Part shown: in pieces, positions 3,950 through 37,157 of the stretch
Layout: the number at the start of each line of letters is the position of its first letter
Position numbering within the stretch: position 1 is the stretch's first letter
NCBI GenBank assembly: GCA_964365915.1
Contig: CAYIRJ010000001.1
Coordinates: 1 to 56,096 of the forward strand
Direction of reading: 5' to 3'
DNA from: Candidatus Woesearchaeota archaeon
Lineage (GTDB): Archaea; Nanobdellota; Nanobdellia; SCGC-AAA011-G17; DATDVL01
DNA: 56,096 nucleotides
The notes under the pieces: generated by a model
The model's database searches: none
What the model saw: the letters and a program-made list of their open reading frames with translations, nothing else
Told to the model about the DNA's origin: nothing
Made by a program: the position numbers and the translations under genes

Positions 3950-4160
3950 ACCAAGATTCTATTTTTTCGCCCTAGAGCTATCGGGAGCTTCCTCCCAAAG
4001 GAGAAGCGATGAAGGATACAAAGCTGGGGCTACACGTAAGCCTGCAAGTGCACGAAAGTGCCATGAAATACAATGACAACAATTAGTAGTAATGATCCAC
4101 CTTGGGAAAGTTGTGAATGAAGCTTGAAGTCATGGTGAAACTCAGCAGGCTTGCTACATC

Positions 4161-4264
4161 TGTCGCGAGGTTCAGGGCGGATTCTGATAGGGTCAACCTG
4201 AATTGCAACAGGGATCGGCAGAACTCGAAATCTTTTCAAGACGAGATTGCTGCTTTGGGAATAA
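4161..4264 (+). repeat. DGR template repeat (TR)
   Basis: Non-coding copy of the target 3' end. The frame corresponding to the VR frame has four AAY codons (AAC, AAT, AAC, AAC). It contains an extra 18 nt (4228-4245) absent from both VRs. It ends 18 nt before the RT ATG. Confidence 0.85.
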
Positions 4265-4282: not shown

Positions 4283-5389
4283 ATGAAAACGTACCCAGAT
4301 ATTTATGCACAGCTCTGTTCTTTAGAAAATTTGGAAAGTGCATTCCAGAAAGCAAAGCTTGGCAAATCGAAAAAGTTGTATGTTCTAGAATTTGAAGCCA
4401 ATCTGAAAGAAAATTTAGAACAGTTGCAAAAAGAATTACAATTGCAGACCTACATGCCGCAGCCACTGAAAAGGTTTATCATCAGGGATCCAAAGACGAG
4501 AGTCATCCATGCATCTGCTTTCCTCGACAGGGTTGTCCACCATGCGATTACCAATGTGCTGGGTCCTATCTTTGAAAAGAAATTTGTTTATGATTCCTAT
4601 GCAAGTAGGGTAAATAAAGGCACGCATAAAGCAATACAGCGATTCGCGCAATTCATGAGAAAAGTCTCGAGAAACGGTGCGCAAGTAACGCAGGCAGCCA
4701 CAAACAATCACATTCAGGGATATGTGTTGAAGGCAGATATTCAGCATTATTTTGATACTGTAGATCATGAAATATTGATAGCTATTCTCAGAAAAATTGT
4801 TCCGGATGAGAAACTCATCAACCTAGTAAAGAAGATCTTGAATAATCTGGACATGAAAATTTCTGGCAAAGGAATGCCTTTGGGGAATTACACTTCACAA
4901 TTTTTTGCTAACGTGTACTTGAATGAACTAGACTATTTTGTTAAGCATGTCCTTCAATGCAAATATTACATCCGTTACGTGGATGACTTTGTGATCTTGC
5001 ACTCAAATAAGGGAATATTAGAAAACTATGGCGTACGTATTAAAGAATTTTTAAGAGCAATAAAGTTGGAATTGCATCCGCAAAAGTCCAAGATTCTCCC
5101 TTTGAAAGATGGGATTACATTTCTTGGATACAAAATATTCTATTGTTACAGGCTACTAAGAAGAAGGAACCGTTTCCGCTTTGAAAGAAGGTTCAAGGAC
5201 TATCTGCAGCAATGTAAGGATGGAGAATTAACCTATTTCGAAATTGTAACAAAGCTACAAGGATGGTTTGGATATGCGAAATGGGCAAATACGTACAGAT
5301 ACAGAAAATTGATTTTCAAAAGATTAAATCAAGAAGTATTAGCTCAACGCATACCGCAAGATAGCAGCCACTCCTCCCATGTCGCGTAG
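4283..5389 (+). CDS. DGR-type reverse transcriptase
   Basis: RT motifs seen: RVIHASAFLDRVVHHAI, YASRVNKGTHKAI, LKADIQHYFDTVDH, MPLGNYTSQFFANVYLNELD (the DGR hallmark I/LGxxxSQ) and YIRYVDDFV (YxDD). No group II maturase or endonuclease tail. Confidence 0.9.
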   Translation: MKTYPDIYAQLCSLENLESAFQKAKLGKSKKLYVLEFEANLKENLEQLQKELQLQTYMPQPLKRFIIRDPKTRVIHASAFLDRVVHHAITNVLGPIFEKKFVYDSYASRVNKGTHKAIQRFAQFMRKVSRNGAQVTQAATNNHIQGYVLKADIQHYFDTVDHEILIAILRKIVPDEKLINLVKKILNNLDMKISGKGMPLGNYTSQFFANVYLNELDYFVKHVLQCKYYIRYVDDFVILHSNKGILENYGVRIKEFLRAIKLELHPQKSKILPLKDGITFLGYKIFYCYRLLRRRNRFRFERRFKDYLQQCKDGELTYFEIVTKLQGWFGYAKWANTYRYRKLIFKRLNQEVLAQRIPQDSSHSSHVA

Positions 5390-6427
5390 CTGCTGCCCTT
5401 CCCTGCTTTGTGTGCTGATAATTTGCACTTTCGTGCCATGACCTTCAGCTTCATCCATTAATCCCTCTAACACGAATTCATCTAAGTCTTCGCTTAGCAG
5501 CAAAAGTTCTACTGCCCCCAGGTTCAATGCTTCATGGACTTCTTCTTTGCCATAAGAAGCCTTTTTCGGATCTTTTGCTAACGTCATCAAAAATCGTTCC
5601 ACTGCTTTTTTTTCTTCCACAATGTTCTCCTGTGCTAAAATATCTTTGCTTGCATCAACAAGATCGTGCAGTCCATGCTCATCCGTGTAGGTCAAATCAA
5701 ATATCCCTTTGACTTTGCGCTTCAATTCGTTATTCAATTGGTCAATAAAAGTGTTTTTGGTGTGTCCAGGCCCGCCGATCAAGACACCTTTCAAATCCTT
5801 GATCACAGGTAAAAATTGTTTGTCGCAGAATTCAGCAACCCTTTTATAAAATTCCAATGCCATGCCATCAATGAGCCTTTCCAGGCGTTGCGAGCTCTGT
5901 CCTCCCGCTTTAAACTTTCCCGGTACGCCAGAAGTAAGAGTATGCAGTACTTGAATATAGCTTCCGCGCATTAAGCCAACCGTCGCTTCCTTCCTATCCA
6001 TGACAATCAGCGCATAGAATTCCTTTTCCTCAAGCATCTGTTCTAAAATGTCAGTCTTGAAGGTTTGATCGCAGCGGTAAATGCGTTGCCCTATAGGAAC
6101 AGGGGGTTCAATGCTGAACACTTGAATGTCAATCTTATTTTCCTTGTCAGAAACGTTGCCAGCAAACACTGCTAATCCATTGGGCGGAGTTTTCTTGAAC
6201 AAGCGCAAATGATTGATCACTCTTCCTAAACTATCCACAACATTATTTCTTGTGCGTGCATCTTTAATATTCGTTGCAGTGCCTGCTTCCTGCTCCAAAT
6301 GCTGGATAATCTTGATAATATCGTACCCTGCAGGCACATATACCGAAACCAGTTCCGTATGCCTTCCGCGCATGTGTTGCAACGGCCTGATAAATTTCTT
6401 CAGTTTCAATTTCTCTTTGAGTTCCAT
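5339..6427 (-). CDS. prf1: Peptide chain release factor aRF1
   Basis: GGQ motif (KAGGQSSQRLERL). The NIKS-loop region reads TATNIKDARTRNNV. Length and domain order are typical of aRF1. Confidence 0.95.
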   Translation of the reverse strand: MELKEKLKLKKFIRPLQHMRGRHTELVSVYVPAGYDIIKIIQHLEQEAGTATNIKDARTRNNVVDSLGRVINHLRLFKKTPPNGLAVFAGNVSDKENKIDIQVFSIEPPVPIGQRIYRCDQTFKTDILEQMLEEKEFYALIVMDRKEATVGLMRGSYIQVLHTLTSGVPGKFKAGGQSSQRLERLIDGMALEFYKRVAEFCDKQFLPVIKDLKGVLIGGPGHTKNTFIDQLNNELKRKVKGIFDLTYTDEHGLHDLVDASKDILAQENIVEEKKAVERFLMTLAKDPKKASYGKEEVHEALNLGAVELLLLSEDLDEFVLEGLMDEAEGHGTKVQIISTQSREGQQLRDMGGVAAILRYALS

Positions 6428-15306: not shown

Positions 15307-15840
15307 ATGATGTCGCAAATTGTCGCATTACCAAAAACACTAGAAAATACGCTTGATGCATTAATTGCCGTGAATCAAGAATCAAACGGGGTTATTTGGA
15401 CGAAGCGTAAAGGGAGAATTAATGTCTGCACCTCTATCTTTATGACAGGAATAGGGGATGACTCACACGTTGAAGCGAATGAAGAAAGAATAAGATTGGT
15501 CAATGTATTCTTAGAAAAAAATCCACAATATTGTTTTGTTAAGTTTCATACCCATACATATGCAACCATCCAAAAACATGGAGAGTATTATGCAGAACAT
15601 TTTTCTACTGGGGATATTCAAGGATATCAAGAACAATTACAGCATAATCCTGATTTTCTAGCAATGGTAGTAACCCCTGTGAAAAAATTATTGTATGGAA
15701 GGGATAATCCTGAGCTTGTAGTTATTGCTGATCCGAAAAATTTCCTTCAAGAAAGTGCAATTATTGATCTAAGTGTAAGGATTATGGCAAGATTCCTGAA
15801 TATAAATTTAGATAATTTTTCAGCAAAAAAGAAAAAATGA
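15307..15840 (+). CDS. JAB/MPN-like metalloprotease-fold protein (candidate)
   Basis: QESNGVIW (candidate Glu) and FHTHTYATIQKHGEYYAEHFSTGD (HxH...SxxD with a longer than usual spacer). Confidence 0.45.
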   Translation: MMSQIVALPKTLENTLDALIAVNQESNGVIWTKRKGRINVCTSIFMTGIGDDSHVEANEERIRLVNVFLEKNPQYCFVKFHTHTYATIQKHGEYYAEHFSTGDIQGYQEQLQHNPDFLAMVVTPVKKLLYGRDNPELVVIADPKNFLQESAIIDLSVRIMARFLNINLDNFSAKKKK

Positions 15841-30554: not shown

Positions 30555-31682
30555 TCAAGAATAAAGATTCCTTCCATCGCATCGTACGTCAGGAAGTCCC
30601 ATCATTGCCAAGAGAGTAGGAAACAAGTCCACAATGTGTGCTTCCTGTTTCCCTGAAAACCCCTTTACCAAATAAAACGCTTTCTGCTCTTTAGGATTCC
30701 ATCCATGCATGGCTTTATACTGCATATTCTTCGTGAAAAAGCTGGGGCTGAAAACGACCCCTTTCTTTGCTAAGAAAACAACATGGCTGGTAGCAGGCAA
30801 TCGAAAGACATGCTGGTCAATAATGGTTCCTTCAGTAATGCAGGATAATGCATGCACCACGATATTGCGCGCCTCAGCAGTGGAAAACCAGAAACGTGCA
30901 TACGTGCTTCCTAAAAAGTACGTATAATCTTTCCCAAATTTCAGCTTGAGCTTCTGCAGTTCAGCTTCCAAATCAAAAATTTCCTGAATGTAATCCATGC
31001 CGTGGTCTGAGAAAAAAACCATCTGCTCCTCATCAAGTTCCTGGCAATAGCCATCAATTTCTCGCAGCTTTGCTTTCACTTCTTCAGAATTCGGGCCATA
31101 GATGTGCCCAACATGATCCAAGTCTCCAAAGTGAATAAAATTAAAGTCAGCAGCACAGCTCCGTGCATGTCGTATGACTGTTGCAGAATCATTTTTGAAG
31201 AAAAGTCTGCTTTTTCTGTTGTGGAAGACAAAAGGCCAGTCGACTGCAGCAAAGCTTTTCCCTGCTCGTTCCAAGTAATCAAAAAGCGTAGGCAAAGGCA
31301 AGCATCCACGCTGCATCCAGATTTTTTCTAGTGTTGGCTTGAAATGGCGCGCCTTTGATTGATGCACTTTCAAGGGAGTGTAAAAATAAAGATTGCGGGA
31401 AAGATAGCGTAGCCCGTTGGCAAGAATTCTGTTGCGGATAATAAAGGGAGCAGGAGTTTTTCTTTTTTCAAAGACATCAATCACCCCATGTTTTTCTGGA
31501 TGGAATCCCGTCATGAAAGAAGCGACAATGCTGGTATAGCCAAAAGGCACTTCTAGATTCCCATGAAGAGAGTGCTGCGCAAGATTTCGTAAATAAGGGG
31601 TGTGTTGCAGGTATTCTTGTTTAAATCCGTCTAAGAAGATGCACTTCATAACAGCCTCTGCGTGTAATATTTTCCATAGCAA
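30555..31682 (-). CDS. Alkaline-phosphatase-superfamily enzyme (nucleotide pyrophosphatase/phosphodiesterase-like)
   Basis: IFLDGF, GYTSIVASFMTGFHPEKHGV and FIHFGDLDHVGHIYGP motifs. Confidence 0.7.
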   Translation of the reverse strand: MLWKILHAEAVMKCIFLDGFKQEYLQHTPYLRNLAQHSLHGNLEVPFGYTSIVASFMTGFHPEKHGVIDVFEKRKTPAPFIIRNRILANGLRYLSRNLYFYTPLKVHQSKARHFKPTLEKIWMQRGCLPLPTLFDYLERAGKSFAAVDWPFVFHNRKSRLFFKNDSATVIRHARSCAADFNFIHFGDLDHVGHIYGPNSEEVKAKLREIDGYCQELDEEQMVFFSDHGMDYIQEIFDLEAELQKLKLKFGKDYTYFLGSTYARFWFSTAEARNIVVHALSCITEGTIIDQHVFRLPATSHVVFLAKKGVVFSPSFFTKNMQYKAMHGWNPKEQKAFYLVKGFSGKQEAHIVDLFPTLLAMMGLPDVRCDGRNLYS

Positions 31683-32833
31683 TAGAGTGCAGCTTTTCGT
31701 AATGCTTCAAAAGCTTCTCCTTCTACAGGAGCCAGATATTTGAGGTAGTGTTTGCATGCATCGAGTAGCTGAGGATCTTCCAATGCATATAAGAGCAAAA
31801 ATGCAGGCATGAACACTCTCACTCCGACATCCCGCCATTTCATGAGTGCTGGAACATATCGTGTTCGCAAGAAGTACAACCCATTCAGTCCATACTGCAG
31901 AGGAACTGCAGCTCTCCCGATCGAAAGATAGGGAACATGGTATTGCAATGGCAATTTTTGATAAATCTTTTGCATCAGCTCTTCCTTGCGTGTTGCAAAA
32001 ATCCTCAGGTCATGCTGCGCAAGGTAATTGATCGTGAAATACAGGGCATCACGTGCCTCCTTCCAGAACTGCACAGGATCTTTGATTTTTGCAGGCTGAA
32101 AGTCGCACTTCATGCGCGTCGCAAATGTTACCTTTTTTGCCAGATCTGGCATTTCCTTTCCGTACAGCTTCTTGAACAAGGCAGCTCTCCCGCGATACGT
32201 TCCGGAAAAATGGTGCTTCAAAAGAAGTAATGCTTCTGCGCATCCCATGAACGTTTTCAGTGCATAGTAGATGCAGATAAGCTTTTCATCATCCTTAAAT
32301 TTTCCTTGCCATCTTCGTTCATCCATCGCTAAAAGTAAAAGGCAGGACTTGTTGATCATGTGCCGCCATCCTTCAGAAAGGGGAAGGTCCCGTTCCGTAA
32401 TCTGGATGAGATCACGATAATCATTTCCATACAGTAATTGCGTGCTGTATTTGATTTCATACGTGCGCGTGGTGGGCTTGAGCTTGGATAAGGCAGCAAC
32501 AGGAATTGCCCGCAAGTCCACATGGAAAAACTTTTTCCTCTGATATCCTGTTCCGTCAGTCTCGATGAATTCTCCACCACCCATTCCGATGGCAGCAGAT
32601 GCTTTTTTTCCCACGCGCTCCAGTTCTGCATCAGGGACCGCTCTCTCAGTAATAATATATATGTCAAAATCGTTGAACACTTCCTTCCGGTTCAGAATAG
32701 TCCCTTCTCCCTTGCCAAAGCTGCCGAACATCAGCACGCTTAGCGGCTGCAGTTCTTCTACAATAATCTGTGTTACTCTCTTCACTTTTTCTTTCACCAT
32801 TCCTTCAATGTGCTTATGATGGGTAGTAAACAT
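31646..32833 (-). CDS. Pol-beta-superfamily nucleotidyltransferase domain protein
   Basis: LMFGSFGKGEG followed by DFDIYII. Confidence 0.6.
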   Translation of the reverse strand: MFTTHHKHIEGMVKEKVKRVTQIIVEELQPLSVLMFGSFGKGEGTILNRKEVFNDFDIYIITERAVPDAELERVGKKASAAIGMGGGEFIETDGTGYQRKKFFHVDLRAIPVAALSKLKPTTRTYEIKYSTQLLYGNDYRDLIQITERDLPLSEGWRHMINKSCLLLLAMDERRWQGKFKDDEKLICIYYALKTFMGCAEALLLLKHHFSGTYRGRAALFKKLYGKEMPDLAKKVTFATRMKCDFQPAKIKDPVQFWKEARDALYFTINYLAQHDLRIFATRKEELMQKIYQKLPLQYHVPYLSIGRAAVPLQYGLNGLYFLRTRYVPALMKWRDVGVRVFMPAFLLLYALEDPQLLDACKHYLKYLAPVEGEAFEALRKAALYCYGKYYTQRLL

Positions 32834-33765
32834 CAGAAGTACCTCTCTTCCCGCATCGATAAAATCCCTCCAAGGATGGTGCCAATCAACCCAATGACGC
32901 GATTGATCAATGCAAGAGAAAGAGCAACTGCAGGGTCAATGCCAAACACTTTATTGAACAGCACGGTGATGGCCAGTTCAGAAGTGCCAATGCCCCCCAC
33001 AGTGATGGGAATTAAGGTGATCAGCGTGGCAATGGAGGAGACGAAGATAAAGGAAAGCAGGGGCACGTTCACATGCAGTGCAAGCGCAATTAGGTACATC
33101 TGCAAGTACAGCACAAACCAAACCCCAAGCGTAGCAATAATAGGAAGAACAATCTGCTGTGGTTTCAGCAGGGTTGCATGAAACGCTTCAAAGGAAATGC
33201 GCGCCCGATCTTTGAATTTTCTCGGAACCAGAAAGTAGAATACCCTCCAGATAAAAAAATTCCGTGTCGGTTCGTGGAGGGAAAGCAGCAGGACGACGAT
33301 CAATACCAAAAAAAGAATGAGGAACTGAAAAAAAATACCATGAAAGTATTTCAATGTCACGATCGATCCCAAAAATGCAAAGGATGCTACGGTGAACAAG
33401 TCAAAGAAGCGTTCCAGGGTGACAGAGGAAATGCAGGCCCCAATGTTTTTTTTCGTGCGCTCCTTCAGATGAAATATTTTAGAGAACGTTCCGATTCTTC
33501 CCGGAGTGATGTTGCCATAAAAATTACTAATCAAATGCACTTTGAGGATATAAGAAAAAGGCAAGAAGATGCTCTGGCGATGCAGGATCAAGTTCCATTT
33601 CCACGCTTGCGCAGCAATAATAACAAAGCTCAGTGCAATGCTGAGCAGCACATAATTCCATTGGACAGTAGGGAGCGTCTCTGCAAGCTTGTCAAATCCC
33701 ACTCTGTGGATAACGTAAAGAAATAAAAGAATCCCTATCAGCGGAAGAAGCTTTCGAATTTTCAT
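32833..33765 (-). CDS. Flippase-like membrane protein (lysyl-PG synthase TM region / UPF0104-like)
   Basis: About 8 TM segments. The N-terminus (KIRKLLPLIGILLFLYVIHRVGFDKL) is typical of this family. Confidence 0.65.
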   Translation of the reverse strand: MKIRKLLPLIGILLFLYVIHRVGFDKLAETLPTVQWNYVLLSIALSFVIIAAQAWKWNLILHRQSIFLPFSYILKVHLISNFYGNITPGRIGTFSKIFHLKERTKKNIGACISSVTLERFFDLFTVASFAFLGSIVTLKYFHGIFFQFLILFLVLIVVLLLSLHEPTRNFFIWRVFYFLVPRKFKDRARISFEAFHATLLKPQQIVLPIIATLGVWFVLYLQMYLIALALHVNVPLLSFIFVSSIATLITLIPITVGGIGTSELAITVLFNKVFGIDPAVALSLALINRVIGLIGTILGGILSMREERYF

Positions 33766-33774
33766 AGGTCATGG

Positions 33775-35736
33775 TTATTCGTGGATAGGGCGTGAAAAGT
33801 CTTTCAGATGGCCTGCAACTGCCTTCACTCCCTTAAGCGTGTACAGCACGTCTTCAAAGGATCTGATTTTCGTGAGATGGCGCAGGATATATTCAGGATG
33901 CAGGAACACATAGTAGATGCGCTTGCACATACCTTCCACTTCTGCAGGGGTCATATCTGGCGTCTTGAAGATCGGCTCTGCCATGTCGAAGCGCTCATAG
34001 TCATACGGATTAATGCCGGGCCTGAACCATCCTTTCTCAATGCCTTCTTTCCATAAGGGCGTTCCAGGATACGGAACAATGACTGTAGACTGCAGCACAT
34101 CTGCATATCCCTTTCTCATGAGATACTTGCTGAGCTTGACCGTTTCCATAGTATCTTTCTTGTACTCCCAAGGGTATCCGACCATCATGGTAAGATGCAC
34201 AGTCAACCCCGCTTTCTTCGCATCCCTGCAGCTCGCAACAACCTCGTCAACTCTTGTTCCTTTGTCCAGCTTGTCAATGGTTTTCTGGCATCCTGATTCC
34301 AGCCCGTATTTGAGCAGCCTAAATCCTGCGCGCCCCATGTGTTTATACTCTTCAGCATTAACTGCGCCAAAGCGCATGTTGCAGGAATAAATCACTTTTT
34401 TATTGTAGCCAGAAGAAATCATCAAATCGCAGAATTTTTTCAGCCACGGCCCAACAGTGATGGTCCCAGCATCATCGAAAATTTCTTGCACGCCACATTC
34501 ATCAACTAAATATTTCACTTCCTGCATCACATTTTCAGGCGAGCGTGCTCTAAACGTTCCTTTCGGATAAAGCGTATGGTCCCAGACGCAATTAGAAACA
34601 TTCAATAAATTTGCTGTATAGGAGTGTTCTCCCGGAACTGAAAGGTTATATACAGGACCGAAATAGTCTTCTGCAGATATTTCCTTGATAAGGAAGTATG
34701 AACGTTCAAACGTGGTCTCTTGAATTTGTAATGTTTCTTTGCCACGAATAATGTCCTGCATCTTTTGATTAAAGAGGGAAACAACAAGATCTCCTTCTTT
34801 TAGCTGTGATGCTTCTATCAATTGCTCTTCATTATTCCTTTTTACATAAATTTTATGATTAGGAGTACAGCGAAGTTCTGGAAATTCTTCAACATTAATT
34901 TTTATAAGTTTACCAGAATAATCTCGCTGAAAAATAAAATCAGGTTTTTGGTAATTTCCTGTATGGGTAAGAATTTCATCGCGAAGGGTGATCTGTTGAA
35001 TGGGAGTAATACCATTTTTGGTTGCAATCAATGTTTCAGGGGTAAAACAAAATGTACATCTCCCCCACCAGCAGTCTCTTCCCGACATGATGTAAGCGAG
35101 CGGCCTCCCGATGAGGTTGAATTCCTTTTGGTAGAGATCATTGCGCGTAAACTTTCGATCAATAATGGGGGCAGCATCTAAGGGCTTTTTCAGCTCATAT
35201 CTTCCGTGCTCAATAATATTTTTTCCTTTCCTGTACCAGATGCCGCGAGGGATATCTTTCTTATGTTCCAGCGCATCTGCCAATTCCACCATGGCAAAGT
35301 CATAGTAGCCTCCGCAAATCAAGAAATCGAGTTTGCAGCGCTGCATGGTCTCTTCAGGAAAAGCAGAAAGGTGATCCCCCATCATACAGATTTGCATTTT
35401 GGGATAGCGTTCCTTCAGGATGTCAATAGCCTGCCAGTGCTTTTTCACCACAGGGCTTTTGGTTTCAAAAAAAAACAAGTCAGGCTGCACTTCATCAAGA
35501 AAGGAATAAAATTCTTCTTCAGTGATGTTTTCAGCAATGCAGTCCTTCCAGTAGGTTTCCCAGCCCTCATTTCTTAGCCAGGTAGCTCCAGTAGCAAGCG
35601 CAACAGGGAATAAAAAAGTCGGGTTGTTGAAGTATTGGAATTGCCTATTTTGGCTTAAAAGAGGCGTCCCTTTAGAGGAAAGCGTAGGAGGATAGCCAAC
35701 AACAATTTTCAAAGATTTCTTTTTCACCACCATCAT
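33775..35736 (-). CDS. B12-binding-domain radical SAM protein interrupted by a mini-intein
   Basis: Cys motif DCWWGRCTF/C. The N-terminal half is Rossmann-like. The C-terminal part is radical-SAM TIM-barrel-like. Confidence 0.85.
   Translation of the reverse strand: MMVVKKKSLKIVVGYPPTLSSKGTPLLSQNRQFQYFNNPTFLFPVALATGATWLRNEGWETYWKDCIAENITEEEFYSFLDEVQPDLFFFETKSPVVKKHWQAIDILKERYPKMQICMMGDHLSAFPEETMQRCKLDFLICGGYYDFAMVELADALEHKKDIPRGIWYRKGKNIIEHGRYELKKPLDAAPIIDRKFTRNDLYQKEFNLIGRPLAYIMSGRDCWWGRCTFCFTPETLIATKNGITPIQQITLRDEILTHTGNYQKPDFIFQRDYSGKLIKINVEEFPELRCTPNHKIYVKRNNEEQLIEASQLKEGDLVVSLFNQKMQDIIRGKETLQIQETTFERSYFLIKEISAEDYFGPVYNLSVPGEHSYTANLLNVSNCVWDHTLYPKGTFRARSPENVMQEVKYLVDECGVQEIFDDAGTITVGPWLKKFCDLMISSGYNKKVIYSCNMRFGAVNAEEYKHMGRAGFRLLKYGLESGCQKTIDKLDKGTRVDEVVASCRDAKKAGLTVHLTMMVGYPWEYKKDTMETVKLSKYLMRKGYADVLQSTVIVPYPGTPLWKEGIEKGWFRPGINPYDYERFDMAEPIFKTPDMTPAEVEGMCKRIYYVFLHPEYILRHLTKIRSFEDVLYTLKGVKAVAGHLKDFSRPIHE
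34591..35049 (-). mobile_element. Mini-intein (153 aa, no homing endonuclease domain)
   Basis: Block A CFTPETLIATKNG, block B TPNHKIY, block F GPVYNLSVPGEHSYTAN, block G LLNVSN followed by a +1 Cys (CVWD). Confidence 0.8.
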
Positions 35737-35853: not shown

Positions 35854-36486
35854 ATGAAAATAGACACATTAAACCCATATACCATCAAAATTTTGATTGC
35901 TGCAAGAAAAATTGATAGCATTAGCGCTATTGCCAAAAGGATTAACGTGTCCTATGGTTGGACGCATAAGTGGGTTTCAGAATTGATGAAAGAGGGAGTA
36001 TTTAGAGAACAGTGGAGGGGCGTAACATTACAAGAAAAAAACAGGATCTATCGGGAAATAGTAAAATTTATCAAAAAAAATATTGATCCTGTTAATTTCT
36101 ATTATTCGATTTTGCCCTTGTTAGGAATAAACTATTGTTTCACGAAAACTGATGCAGTATACATATGGACTGAGGGAAGATACAACATTGCAAGATATAA
36201 GAGGTTTTATCCTATCTTCATAAAAATTAAAAAAGCAGACTATAAAATATTCTTGGGATATTGTAAAAAATTGCAATTAAAAATAAATGCAAGAAAGGGG
36301 GTATTTTATGTGCCTGAAATTGTTGAGGAATTAAAGTGTGTAAAGCAAAGAGATTACACTGTTGAATCATTAGACTGGACAATTAGTTTTATGAAGGAGA
36401 ACATCTATAATTTTGAACCAGCTTTGGAAATGATTGGTGAGACGTATCACAAAAATTTACATATTAAATATAAAGAGATGAAATAA
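35854..36486 (+). CDS. wHTH DNA-binding protein, AbiEi-like antitoxin candidate
   Basis: The N-terminus (ISAIAKRINVSYGWTHKWVSELMKEG) looks like a winged HTH. The stop overlaps the downstream start (TAATG). Confidence 0.45.
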   Translation: MKIDTLNPYTIKILIAARKIDSISAIAKRINVSYGWTHKWVSELMKEGVFREQWRGVTLQEKNRIYREIVKFIKKNIDPVNFYYSILPLLGINYCFTKTDAVYIWTEGRYNIARYKRFYPIFIKIKKADYKIFLGYCKKLQLKINARKGVFYVPEIVEELKCVKQRDYTVESLDWTISFMKENIYNFEPALEMIGETYHKNLHIKYKEMK

Positions 36487-37157
36487 TGGAAGAGTTAATA
36501 AGCAAAGAAAATGCAATTTTTGAGATTCTCCAAAGATTTTTAGATGCAAAATTGGAGTTTATCATGGTGGGGGGATATGCGGTCTCTTCTTATAAACATC
36601 GCTTTTCCGTTGATGCAGACATTGTTGTTCAGTCACACGATTTAGAAAAGTTTGAATCCATACTCAAGAAAGAAAAATTCAAGAAGGTTCGTGATAAGAA
36701 TTTAGACAACGTTTATTCTTCAAGATTTATGCGGTATGAAAAGGATCTTGCAAGTGTTGACTTAATGATTGATGCGGTTGCTTCAAGAAACACTAACGCT
36801 TCTTTCAGCTATCAACTATTGTTAAGGAATGCATTCAAAAGAAAAATTCAAGGCATTGAAAAAGAAATTTCCGCATTAGTCCCATCAAAAGAGTTGATAA
36901 TAGTGCTTAAATTGCATTCTGGAAGATTAACAGATTTTAGAGATATCGCTGCTTTAGCTAAGGATACGAATACTAACATAATTAAAAAATTTTTATTTAT
37001 TGGAGACCTGAAAGTACTCCAGGATAATCTTAACAACCTTAAAAAATTAGTGCATGATAAAAATTTCATCAATGCGTTCAAAGGGGTGTTCATCGAGAAG
37101 AAATTTGATATTGATCTACAACAAATAGAAAAAATAGGCCAGATAACGAAAGATTAA
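36486..37157 (+). CDS. AbiEii-like nucleotidyltransferase toxin candidate
   Basis: GGYAVSSYKHRFSVDADIVV matches the GG.A...R.S.D.D nucleotidyltransferase motif. Confidence 0.5.
   Translation: MEELISKENAIFEILQRFLDAKLEFIMVGGYAVSSYKHRFSVDADIVVQSHDLEKFESILKKEKFKKVRDKNLDNVYSSRFMRYEKDLASVDLMIDAVASRNTNASFSYQLLLRNAFKRKIQGIEKEISALVPSKELIIVLKLHSGRLTDFRDIAALAKDTNTNIIKKFLFIGDLKVLQDNLNNLKKLVHDKNFINAFKGVFIEKKFDIDLQQIEKIGQITKD

Follow-up and report, generated by a model that had tools for sequence, protein, structure and literature searches.

How does a radical S-adenosylmethionine (radical-SAM) enzyme come to carry 153 additional residues inside the cysteine motif that should hold its iron-sulfur (Fe-S) cluster? 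The question is raised by a gene on contig CAYIRJ010000001.1 of a Candidatus Woesearchaeota archaeon (assembly GCA_964365915.1), of which we analyzed a stretch of 56,096 nucleotides, hereafter called the window. The gene (33775..35736, minus strand; stop codon at 33775-33777) is a single uninterrupted open reading frame (ORF) for a 653-amino-acid (aa) protein of the B12-domain/radical-SAM type, and an initial annotation had proposed that a mini-intein splits its cluster motif. Our analysis makes it highly probable that the segment is a class-1 mini-intein, descended from a homing intein of the LAGLIDADG type, in a class-B-type radical-SAM gene of a DPANN archaeon (Nanoarchaeota/Woesearchaeota group). 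The best-supported account of its behavior is ordinary class-1 splicing, which would restore the third ligand of the cluster.

A mini-intein within the cluster motif

A profile scan of the 653-aa protein yielded the Pfam matches Radical_SAM, Intein_splicing and a weak B12-binding. The segment lies exactly where it had been placed (34591..35049, minus strand), in frame and comprising protein residues 230-382. Upstream of it, the N-extein (residues 1-229; 35050..35736, minus strand) consists of a cobalamin-domain-like Rossmann region and strand beta1 of the radical-SAM barrel; downstream, the C-extein (residues 383-653; 33778..34590, minus strand) supplies the remainder of the barrel, with the Radical_SAM match at residues 391-535. 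Translation and coordinate mapping confirm the host motif as DCWWGRCTF-intein-CVWD. The N-extein reads SGRDCWWGRCTF before the splice junction (residues 215-229 are YIMSGRDCWWGRCTF) and ends in CWWGRCTF, which holds the first two cluster cysteines, Cys222 (35071-35073) and Cys227 (35056-35058), the latter at position -3. The C-extein begins with CVWDHTLYPKG at residue 383 (from 34590 downwards), and Cys383 (34588-34590) serves as +1 splice nucleophile and, at the same time, as third cysteine of the CX4CX2C motif, a double role that the contiguous motif of the orthologues bears out.

The intein itself follows the class-1 order Cys1, TPNH, VYNLSV, HSY and a final Ser-Asn, and all the motifs that had been attributed to it are found in the translated segment. 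Block A, CFTPETLIATKNG (35011..35049, minus strand), opens with the Cys1 nucleophile (35047-35049), and the TIGR01445 match spans intein residues 1-69. Block B is the TPNH of residues 62-65 (34855..34866, minus strand), including Thr62 and His65. The linker QKMQDIIRGKETLQIQET, at about residues 95-112 (34714..34767, minus strand), is the site of the LAGLIDADG endonuclease in related inteins. Blocks F and G, GPVYNLSVPGEHSYTANLLNVSN (34591..34659, minus strand), are matched by TIGR01443 and contain VYNLSV at residue 133, HSY at 142, and the terminal pair Ser152-Asn153 (Asn153 at 34591-34593). The canonical splicing features are therefore in place, namely Cys1, the TxxH of block B, and the terminal Asn153 followed by the +1 Cys383, with the exception of the penultimate histidine of block G, where the segment has Ser152, as the initial annotation had noticed. 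That histidine is usual, yet splicing can do without it. No second intein was detected elsewhere in the window.

Three intein profiles score above their cut-offs, both on the full protein and on the isolated segment: PF14890 Intein_splicing (48.5 and 52.5 bits, respectively; cut-off 35.8), TIGR01445 intein_Nterm (31.3 and 35.3 bits; cut-off 24.5) and TIGR01443 intein_Cterm (19.7 and 22.9 bits; cut-off 15.6). A search of the Protein Data Bank (PDB) sequences with the segment gave no matches other than inteins and Hedgehog Hint domains, led by Mja KlbA, TFIIB, PI-PkoII and Pho RadA. An AlphaFold2 model built from 12 homologous inteins shows one compact domain that includes a linker of 18 residues, with a mean predicted local distance difference test (pLDDT) of 90 and a predicted TM-score (pTM) of 0.84. 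The best 50 Foldseek matches of this model in the PDB are all inteins, bacterial intein-like (BIL) domains or hedgehog Hint domains, with a probability of 1.00 and a query TM-score (TMq) of at most 0.79; the top matches are PhoCDC21-1 (E-value 8e-9, TMq 0.79), Pho RadA, a hedgehog Hint domain and Mtu RecA.

With the archaeal mini-inteins of known structure, PhoCDC21-1 (6rpq), Pho RadA (2lqm/4e2t), Mja KlbA (2jmz) and TFIIB (5o9j), the segment shares the Hedgehog/intein (HINT) fold and a similar size. The resemblance is closest for PhoCDC21-1 and Pho RadA (TMq 0.74-0.79) and lower for TFIIB and KlbA, and sequence similarity is best around block B. These inteins differ from ours in sequence (13-23% identity) and in their hosts, which are replication, repair or transcription proteins.

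Intein-free orthologues and precise boundaries

A search with the spliced (intein-removed) sequence gathered 3,713 relatives, and in about 100 of the best 120 the motif CxxxxCxFC(V/I/A/S)W is contiguous. An unbroken CWWGRCTFCVWD is found in P0002, P0003 and P0004 (82-86% identity) and in about 100 further orthologues, and in the intein-free orthologues GRDCWWGRCTFCVWDHTLYPKGTF is continuous across the insertion site. Once the segment is removed, the window protein reads C-x4-C-x2-C, the spacing that had been predicted for the spliced enzyme and that is shared by the family. The same boundaries appear in the DNA: the window reads ...TGG GGG AGA TGT ACA TTT, then the 459 nt of the intein, then TGC GTC TGG GAC..., and the orthologue reads contiguously ...TGG GGA AGA TGC ACT TTC TGC GTA TGG GAC.... 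Compared with the DNA of the L001 orthologue, the consensus of the junction is TGG GGN AGA TGY ACN TTY / TGY GTN TGG GAY CAY (here and below, the slash marks the insertion point).

The closest intein-free orthologue, P0002 (497 aa, 86% identical), comes from a Nanoarchaeota metagenome-assembled genome (MAG) and lies in the same gene order as in the window: a carbamoyltransferase gene and then, in the opposite direction, the radical-SAM gene, LPG_synthase_TM, a gene for a 395-aa protein and a phosphodiesterase, with PMT_2 glycosyltransferases nearby. An intein-bearing orthologue with 89% extein identity, P0001, has the same gene arrangement.

Two contigs of MAG H51-bin052_1, L076 (at its 3' end) and L019 (at its 5' end), both break inside the orthologous radical-SAM gene. 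They share an exact 55-nt overlap centered on the insertion point, and their junction is intein-free (CWYGKCTF/CVWD). This break would fit an assembly-graph bubble caused by intein-plus and intein-minus alleles coexisting in the population.

Probable endonuclease loss and distribution of the intein

The Pfam scan gave no LAGLIDADG or HNH match in the 153-aa intein, in agreement with its description as a mini-intein devoid of a homing endonuclease. The only poorly predicted part of the intein model is formed by residues about 100-112, with pLDDT below 50 at 104-107. Four relatives at the same site (P0124, P0258, L037 and L039) have inteins of 435-450 aa with the Pfam domain LAGLIDADG_3, and in P0124 and P0258 the approximately 197 extra residues align after residue 110 of the window intein, that is, in the disordered loop. 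Because these same-site relatives hold the LAGLIDADG domain in the same loop, we consider the window intein to be the endonuclease-deleted form, and the 18-residue linker is probably the scar of the lost domain. The endonuclease-bearing P0124 and the mini-intein allele P0032 share 95% identity in their exteins; such forms with and without endonuclease in near-identical hosts provide a natural series for the study of the homing cycle.

A smaller intein still, of just 125 aa (CFHPDTDI...ANNVAVSN/CVWD), occupies this site in the allele at L008:3001-4845. Few known mini-inteins would be shorter, and with 26.8 bits it falls short of the cut-off of Pfam Intein_splicing. Two other loci were considered as endonuclease-bearing alleles on account of their long matches and were discarded: L020 consists of two tandem radical-SAM paralogues without intein, and L081 has an intact motif, also without intein.

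Relatives of the host enzyme number at least 569 among the GTDB species representatives, mostly in MAGs of Woesearchaeota, Pacearchaeota and Nanoarchaeota; a small number belong to bacteria, the PVC group among them. An intein occupies the site in 11 of the 79 best GTDB loci, a count that is inflated because the search query contained the intein. When 123 exteins were clustered by average linkage on identity, a cruder procedure than a real phylogeny, the 14 intein-bearing alleles fell in at least seven separate places beside intein-free sequences. Within such groups the divergence of the intein correlates with that of the extein (Pearson r 0.70), the intein evolving faster.

Composition also sets the intein apart from its host. 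Its GC content is 0.34 and its GC at third codon positions (GC3) 0.242, against 0.459 and 0.525 in its own exteins and an average GC3 of 0.43 in the ORFs of the window; only 0.3% of equal-sized in-frame ORF windows have a GC3 as low. The genomes of most relatives have 30-35% GC, and the composition of the intein fits acquisition from a donor in that range.

Homologues of the host enzyme with about 50% identity (CWHGKCTFCAW or similar) are also present in contigs binned as bacterial (L061, L073-L075, L077, L080, L081 and L083; Kiritimatiellae, Lentisphaerales, Verrucomicrobia and Nitrospinota), and none of them has the intein. Their presence suggests either transfer of the enzyme between domains or mis-binning.

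Recurrent insertion before the third radical-SAM cysteine

Word-indexed searches were of little use for tracing relatives of the intein at other sites: the window intein alone gave no matches, and the 12-intein profile retrieved nothing beyond short inteins, split or partial, in fragments of IMPDH, RNR and RecA. An exhaustive search with the same 12 inteins, flanks excluded, matched 14,331 representative proteins, that is, the intein superfamily at large. We retrieved the 149 top-scoring proteins and re-scored their 323 intein N-junctions by per-domain score. Junctions located after C-x3-5-C-x2 rank 1, 2, 3, 5, 8, 9, 19 and 33 among the 323, and the presence of six of them within the top nine has a chance probability of 1e-8 (hypergeometric).

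At least four further radical-SAM families have inteins at this point of the motif. The junctions read CAYKCTY/C, CPNSCTY/C and CPYTCTY/C in other B12-domain radical-SAM proteins, CNFRCKG/C and CNWLCSY/C in AmmeMemoRadiSam enzymes (TIGR04337, above cut-off), and CNLACTY/C in a SPASM peptide maturase (TIGR04115, above cut-off). From the junctions and the score ranks, the nearest relatives of the window intein are inteins placed directly before the third cluster cysteine in other radical-SAM families. Together they make up a related set, and the scores suggest that this set is one clade.

Precedents exist elsewhere. Two curated NCBIfam 'exception' models, NF045703 (tetraether lipid synthase Tes, intein-containing) and NF038136 (Rv2578c-family), describe intein-interrupted radical-SAM proteins, and the best NCBIfam match of the window intein is the intein part of NF045703 (37 bits against a cut-off of 1700). 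Because its scores are far below the cut-offs, the window protein lies outside both families, whose hosts belong to radical-SAM subfamilies unrelated to ours. When P0261 is aligned to NF045703 and P0254 to NF038136, both alignments nevertheless span the CxxxCxx/C-intein junction unbroken, and their coordinates suggest that the Tes and Rv2578c-family inteins share the insertion point. MoaA is likewise a radical-SAM enzyme, and the MoaA intein of Pyrococcus abyssi (Pab) resembles the window intein in being archaeal, in having Cys1, in residing in a radical-SAM Fe-S enzyme and in having an N-extein Cys-3 able to form a disulfide bond with Cys1. To judge from this Cys-3/Cys1 description, its insertion site would be the same as that of the window intein; the hosts differ, MoaA in one case and an HpnJ-like B12-domain radical-SAM enzyme in the other. 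A more distant parallel is the SufB intein of Mycobacterium tuberculosis, which is found in the Fe-S machinery and responds in its splicing to oxidative and nitrosative stress. It differs from ours in being bacterial, in interrupting a scaffold protein outside a cluster-ligand motif, and in having no close sequence relationship to it.

The initial annotation had regarded a radical-SAM host as uncommon for an intein, which is overstated in view of Pab MoaA, the two NCBIfam models and the four or more other radical-SAM families. Our literature search found no paper describing inteins at the radical-SAM motif, beyond two reviews that mention Pab MoaA; PMC3322345, PMC3087415 and PMC4870337 were set aside as chance co-occurrences of terms. 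Inteins in radical-SAM enzymes are already known, and the window holds no new kind of element or mechanism. What goes beyond earlier knowledge is a recurrent insertion site, common to several radical-SAM families and abundant in DPANN archaea, which is a useful but not a surprising extension. Across several enzyme families from DPANN and other uncultured organisms, related inteins are found at the position just ahead of that third cysteine.

A ferredoxin-type (NuoI-like) protein, P0150 (713 aa), has two inteins within one 4Fe-4S motif. It reads ...DYGR/intein/CVFCGL/intein/CVDACP..., the second intein having a much longer insert, and it splices to CxxCxxCxxxCP; Fe-S ligand motifs other than that of radical-SAM enzymes are thus intein targets too.

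Predicted splicing pathway and its possible redox control

In the model of an intein-free orthologue (pLDDT 91), the cluster motif occupies the loop between a strand (residues 210-213) and a helix (228-233), which places the intein within the cluster loop, directly ahead of helix alpha1. Mechanistically, the gene would be translated as a 653-aa precursor whose intein would take up the HINT fold within the loop between beta1 and alpha1. Block B residues Thr62 and His65 would assist an N-S acyl shift at Cys1, followed by trans-thioesterification to the +1 cysteine, cyclization of Asn153 and, finally, an S-N shift. The product would be a 500-aa enzyme in which C222-x4-C227-x2-C(+1) can ligate the SAM-cleaving [4Fe-4S] cluster. 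In the ancestral state, a LAGLIDADG-bearing homing intein would have targeted the DNA of this motif, its endonuclease being later lost in the window copy. Since the intein sits in the cluster loop, splicing would be needed for enzyme activity, and the gene is best annotated as encoding a normal 500-aa radical-SAM enzyme after splicing, neither a 653-aa fusion nor a pseudogene.

One consequence drawn by the initial annotation, that the enzyme cannot bind its cluster before splicing, does not necessarily follow: in the precursor the intein Cys1 takes the place of the +1 cysteine and completes a CX4CX2C motif, in the arrangement C227-T-F-C230 (Cys1). The cysteines of the precursor stand at positions -8, -3, 1 and +1. 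By analogy with inteins already studied, redox or Fe-S gating of splicing would be plausible. In the Pab MoaA intein a native Cys-3/Cys1 disulfide controls activity, and in Pab PolII the disulfide joins Cys1 and Cys+1 (PMC3922620, PMC10663303). The former has been proposed to keep an oxygen-labile enzyme as precursor until conditions become reducing (Callahan et al. 2011, via PMC3922620 and PMC10663303).

Such analogies raise the alternative that the window intein is, beyond a selfish passenger, a conditional switch, so that an oxygen-labile enzyme would mature only in the reduced cell. The first splicing step would be blocked either, under oxidizing conditions, by a Cys1-Cys227 or Cys1-Cys+1 disulfide, or by Cys1 ligating a cluster or metal in the pseudo-complete CX4CX2C motif. 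The four cysteines of the precursor and the behavior of Pab MoaA speak for this alternative, as does the recurrence of the Cys-3/Cys1/Cys+1 geometry in every radical-SAM-site intein found; a weakened C-terminal catalytic set (a penultimate Ser or Ala in 12 of 12 alleles) would also fit slow, regulatable splicing. However, the geometry arises automatically whenever a Cys1 intein inserts before the third cysteine of a CxxC-containing motif, and needs no selection for regulation. Moreover, the great majority of orthologues, from organisms of the same kinds, have no intein, so the switch would be dispensable; and a patchy distribution, sister alleles with an endonuclease and a deviant GC3 are together what is classically seen in selfish homing elements. 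Because the geometry is automatic, and the distribution and relatives are those of a selfish element, we rate an adaptive switch as rather unlikely.

The broader form of the idea is doubtful: the inteins of this site may use the cluster motif itself as a sensor, with Cys1 sequestered by a disulfide or by Fe-S or another metal and the precursor held unspliced. If true, the maturation of oxygen-labile radical-SAM enzymes of many families (B12-radical-SAM enzymes, AmmeMemoRadiSam, SPASM maturases, MoaA and Tes) would be coupled post-translationally to redox and iron status, and the intein would be a natural, recurrent conditional-splicing switch and not a mere parasite. In either case, compact mini-inteins with the Cys-3/Cys1/Cys+1 arrangement (125-180 aa) are candidates for redox- or metal-conditional splicing, beyond the single studied case of Pab MoaA.

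Conservation of the catalytic residues

Returning to ordinary class-1 splicing, we aligned 12 alleles at the same site, whose exteins are 54-89% and whose inteins are 34-67% identical to those of the window. The positions that do not vary are C1, F2, P4, T10, the four residues of T62-P-N-H65, V133, N135, V138, Y144, L148 and N153; H142 is nearly invariant, and the +1 cysteine is present in every intein-bearing allele. The penultimate residue is Ser or Ala throughout. In 145 related C-terminal junctions it is His in 110, Ser in 18, Ala in six, Lys in six and Gly in five, and the Ser of the window intein is thus a minority yet established state. Codon comparisons between the window and P0001 indicate that the intein and the exteins are both under purifying selection, with ratios of nonsynonymous to synonymous substitution (dN/dS) of 0.08 and 0.04, respectively. 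Purifying selection on both parts is expected if the host enzyme is needed and can be made only through splicing.

Several points weigh against this interpretation. The case for splicing of the precursor is drawn from conservation only. The dN/dS values are rough, because the synonymous divergence (dS) of the two closest intein alleles is saturated (2.7). The catalytic set deviates from the canonical one, with Ser in place of the penultimate His and Asn at the block F position where Asp is frequent; splicing kinetics could be slow or conditional because of these replacements. Inteins are AT-richer than exteins in most related loci too, and a bias common to inteins, not a recent transfer, may account for part of the low GC3. 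Finally, the ranking of radical-SAM-site junctions covers the 149 top-scoring proteins of 14,331 matches, and is not a phylogeny.

The same two replacements, together with the loss of the endonuclease, could be taken as marks of decay. On this view the intein is a remnant that can no longer splice, and the host gene either amounts to a pseudogene or encodes a protein with a role outside radical-SAM chemistry. We consider this very improbable. The ORF is intact, the nucleophiles and block B residues are invariant across alleles as divergent as those aligned here, and purifying selection acts strongly on the exteins of intein-bearing alleles, whose genes still lie in the conserved operon. A residue other than His is penultimate in 35 of the 145 related junctions, and inteins without the penultimate His are reportedly able to splice.

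That the segment is instead a native lineage-specific domain, or a self-cleaving Hint/BIL-type module and not a splicing intein, has next to no chance of being right: although the Hint fold is also found in the hedgehog and BIL proteins that figure among the Foldseek matches, the segment is precisely missing from 86%-identical syntenic orthologues, interrupts an otherwise invariant catalytic motif, has both Cys1 and Asn-Cys(+1), exceeds the cut-offs of the intein-specific N- and C-terminal models and has sister alleles with a homing endonuclease, and the comparison with orthologues, by which the initial annotation had said its own intein reading could be refuted, yielded precise excision boundaries, so that this alternative fails decisively.

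The host enzyme and its operon

The description of the host as a B12-domain radical-SAM enzyme agrees with its Radical_SAM match and with the fold of the orthologue model. PF04055 Radical_SAM scores 51.9 bits on the spliced sequence (cut-off 29.5), and PF02310 B12-binding is weak in the window protein (18.5 bits; cut-off 32.1), yet it is recorded for most orthologues. The best NCBIfam family is HpnJ (TIGR03471), and an assignment to it was rejected on score (162.7 bits against a cut-off of 577.6). The orthologue model resembles MgmA, AprD4, TsrM, OxsB, CysS and TokK, and the host is predicted to have class-B architecture, with a cobalamin-type Rossmann domain and a radical-SAM barrel.

This predicted architecture is that of the class B enzymes MgmA (9ccb), AprD4 (6fd2), TsrM (6wte) and OxsB (5ul4) and of HpnJ, which differ from the host in having CX3CX2C instead of CX4CX2C. 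AprD4 is cobalamin-independent, and cobalamin binding by the host would be no more than a possibility. In the alignment to 9ccb, RGCP-GNCTFC of MgmA corresponds to RDCWWGRCTFC of the host, a one-residue insertion relative to the canonical motif. The longer spacing is conserved in about 100 orthologues, and CxxxxCxxC has also been described in archaeal Elp3 (PMC2996862).

The radical-SAM gene, with or without intein, heads a co-directional block in the window (30555-35736, minus strand) and in L001 and L002, followed by LPG_synthase_TM, the gene for the 395-aa protein, which has no Pfam match, and a type I phosphodiesterase. The block is flanked by PMT_2 glycosyltransferases and by a divergent carbamoyltransferase/PTA_PTB pair. 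From these conserved neighbors, it is likely an uncharacterized DPANN envelope (membrane or cell-surface) pathway of lipid or glycan modification.

Other features of the window

Between the radical-SAM and carbamoyltransferase genes lie two low-GC genes (35854-37157, plus strand; GC 0.31-0.32, against 0.42 for the window), which encode a helix-turn-helix (HTH) protein and an AbiEii/DUF6036-like nucleotidyltransferase and look like an AbiE-type toxin-antitoxin pair. The pair is missing from the same position in the syntenic L002-L004, and L001 has an AAA protein there; it is probably a separate insertion.

Far from the intein, an RT-16 RNA motif (3993-4162, plus strand; Rfam RF03019, 78.7 bits, gathering score 50) immediately precedes a gene for a 368-aa reverse transcriptase (4283-5389, plus strand; Pfam RVT_1, 86.8 bits). 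This contig of a DPANN archaeon thus has a reverse transcriptase accompanied by a structured RNA; a gene for archaeal aRF1 (5339-6427, minus strand) adjoins it. Finally, a 177-aa ORF (15307-15840, plus strand) with no Pfam match has a composition comparable to that of the intein (GC 0.34, GC3 0.25) and is possibly another foreign insertion.

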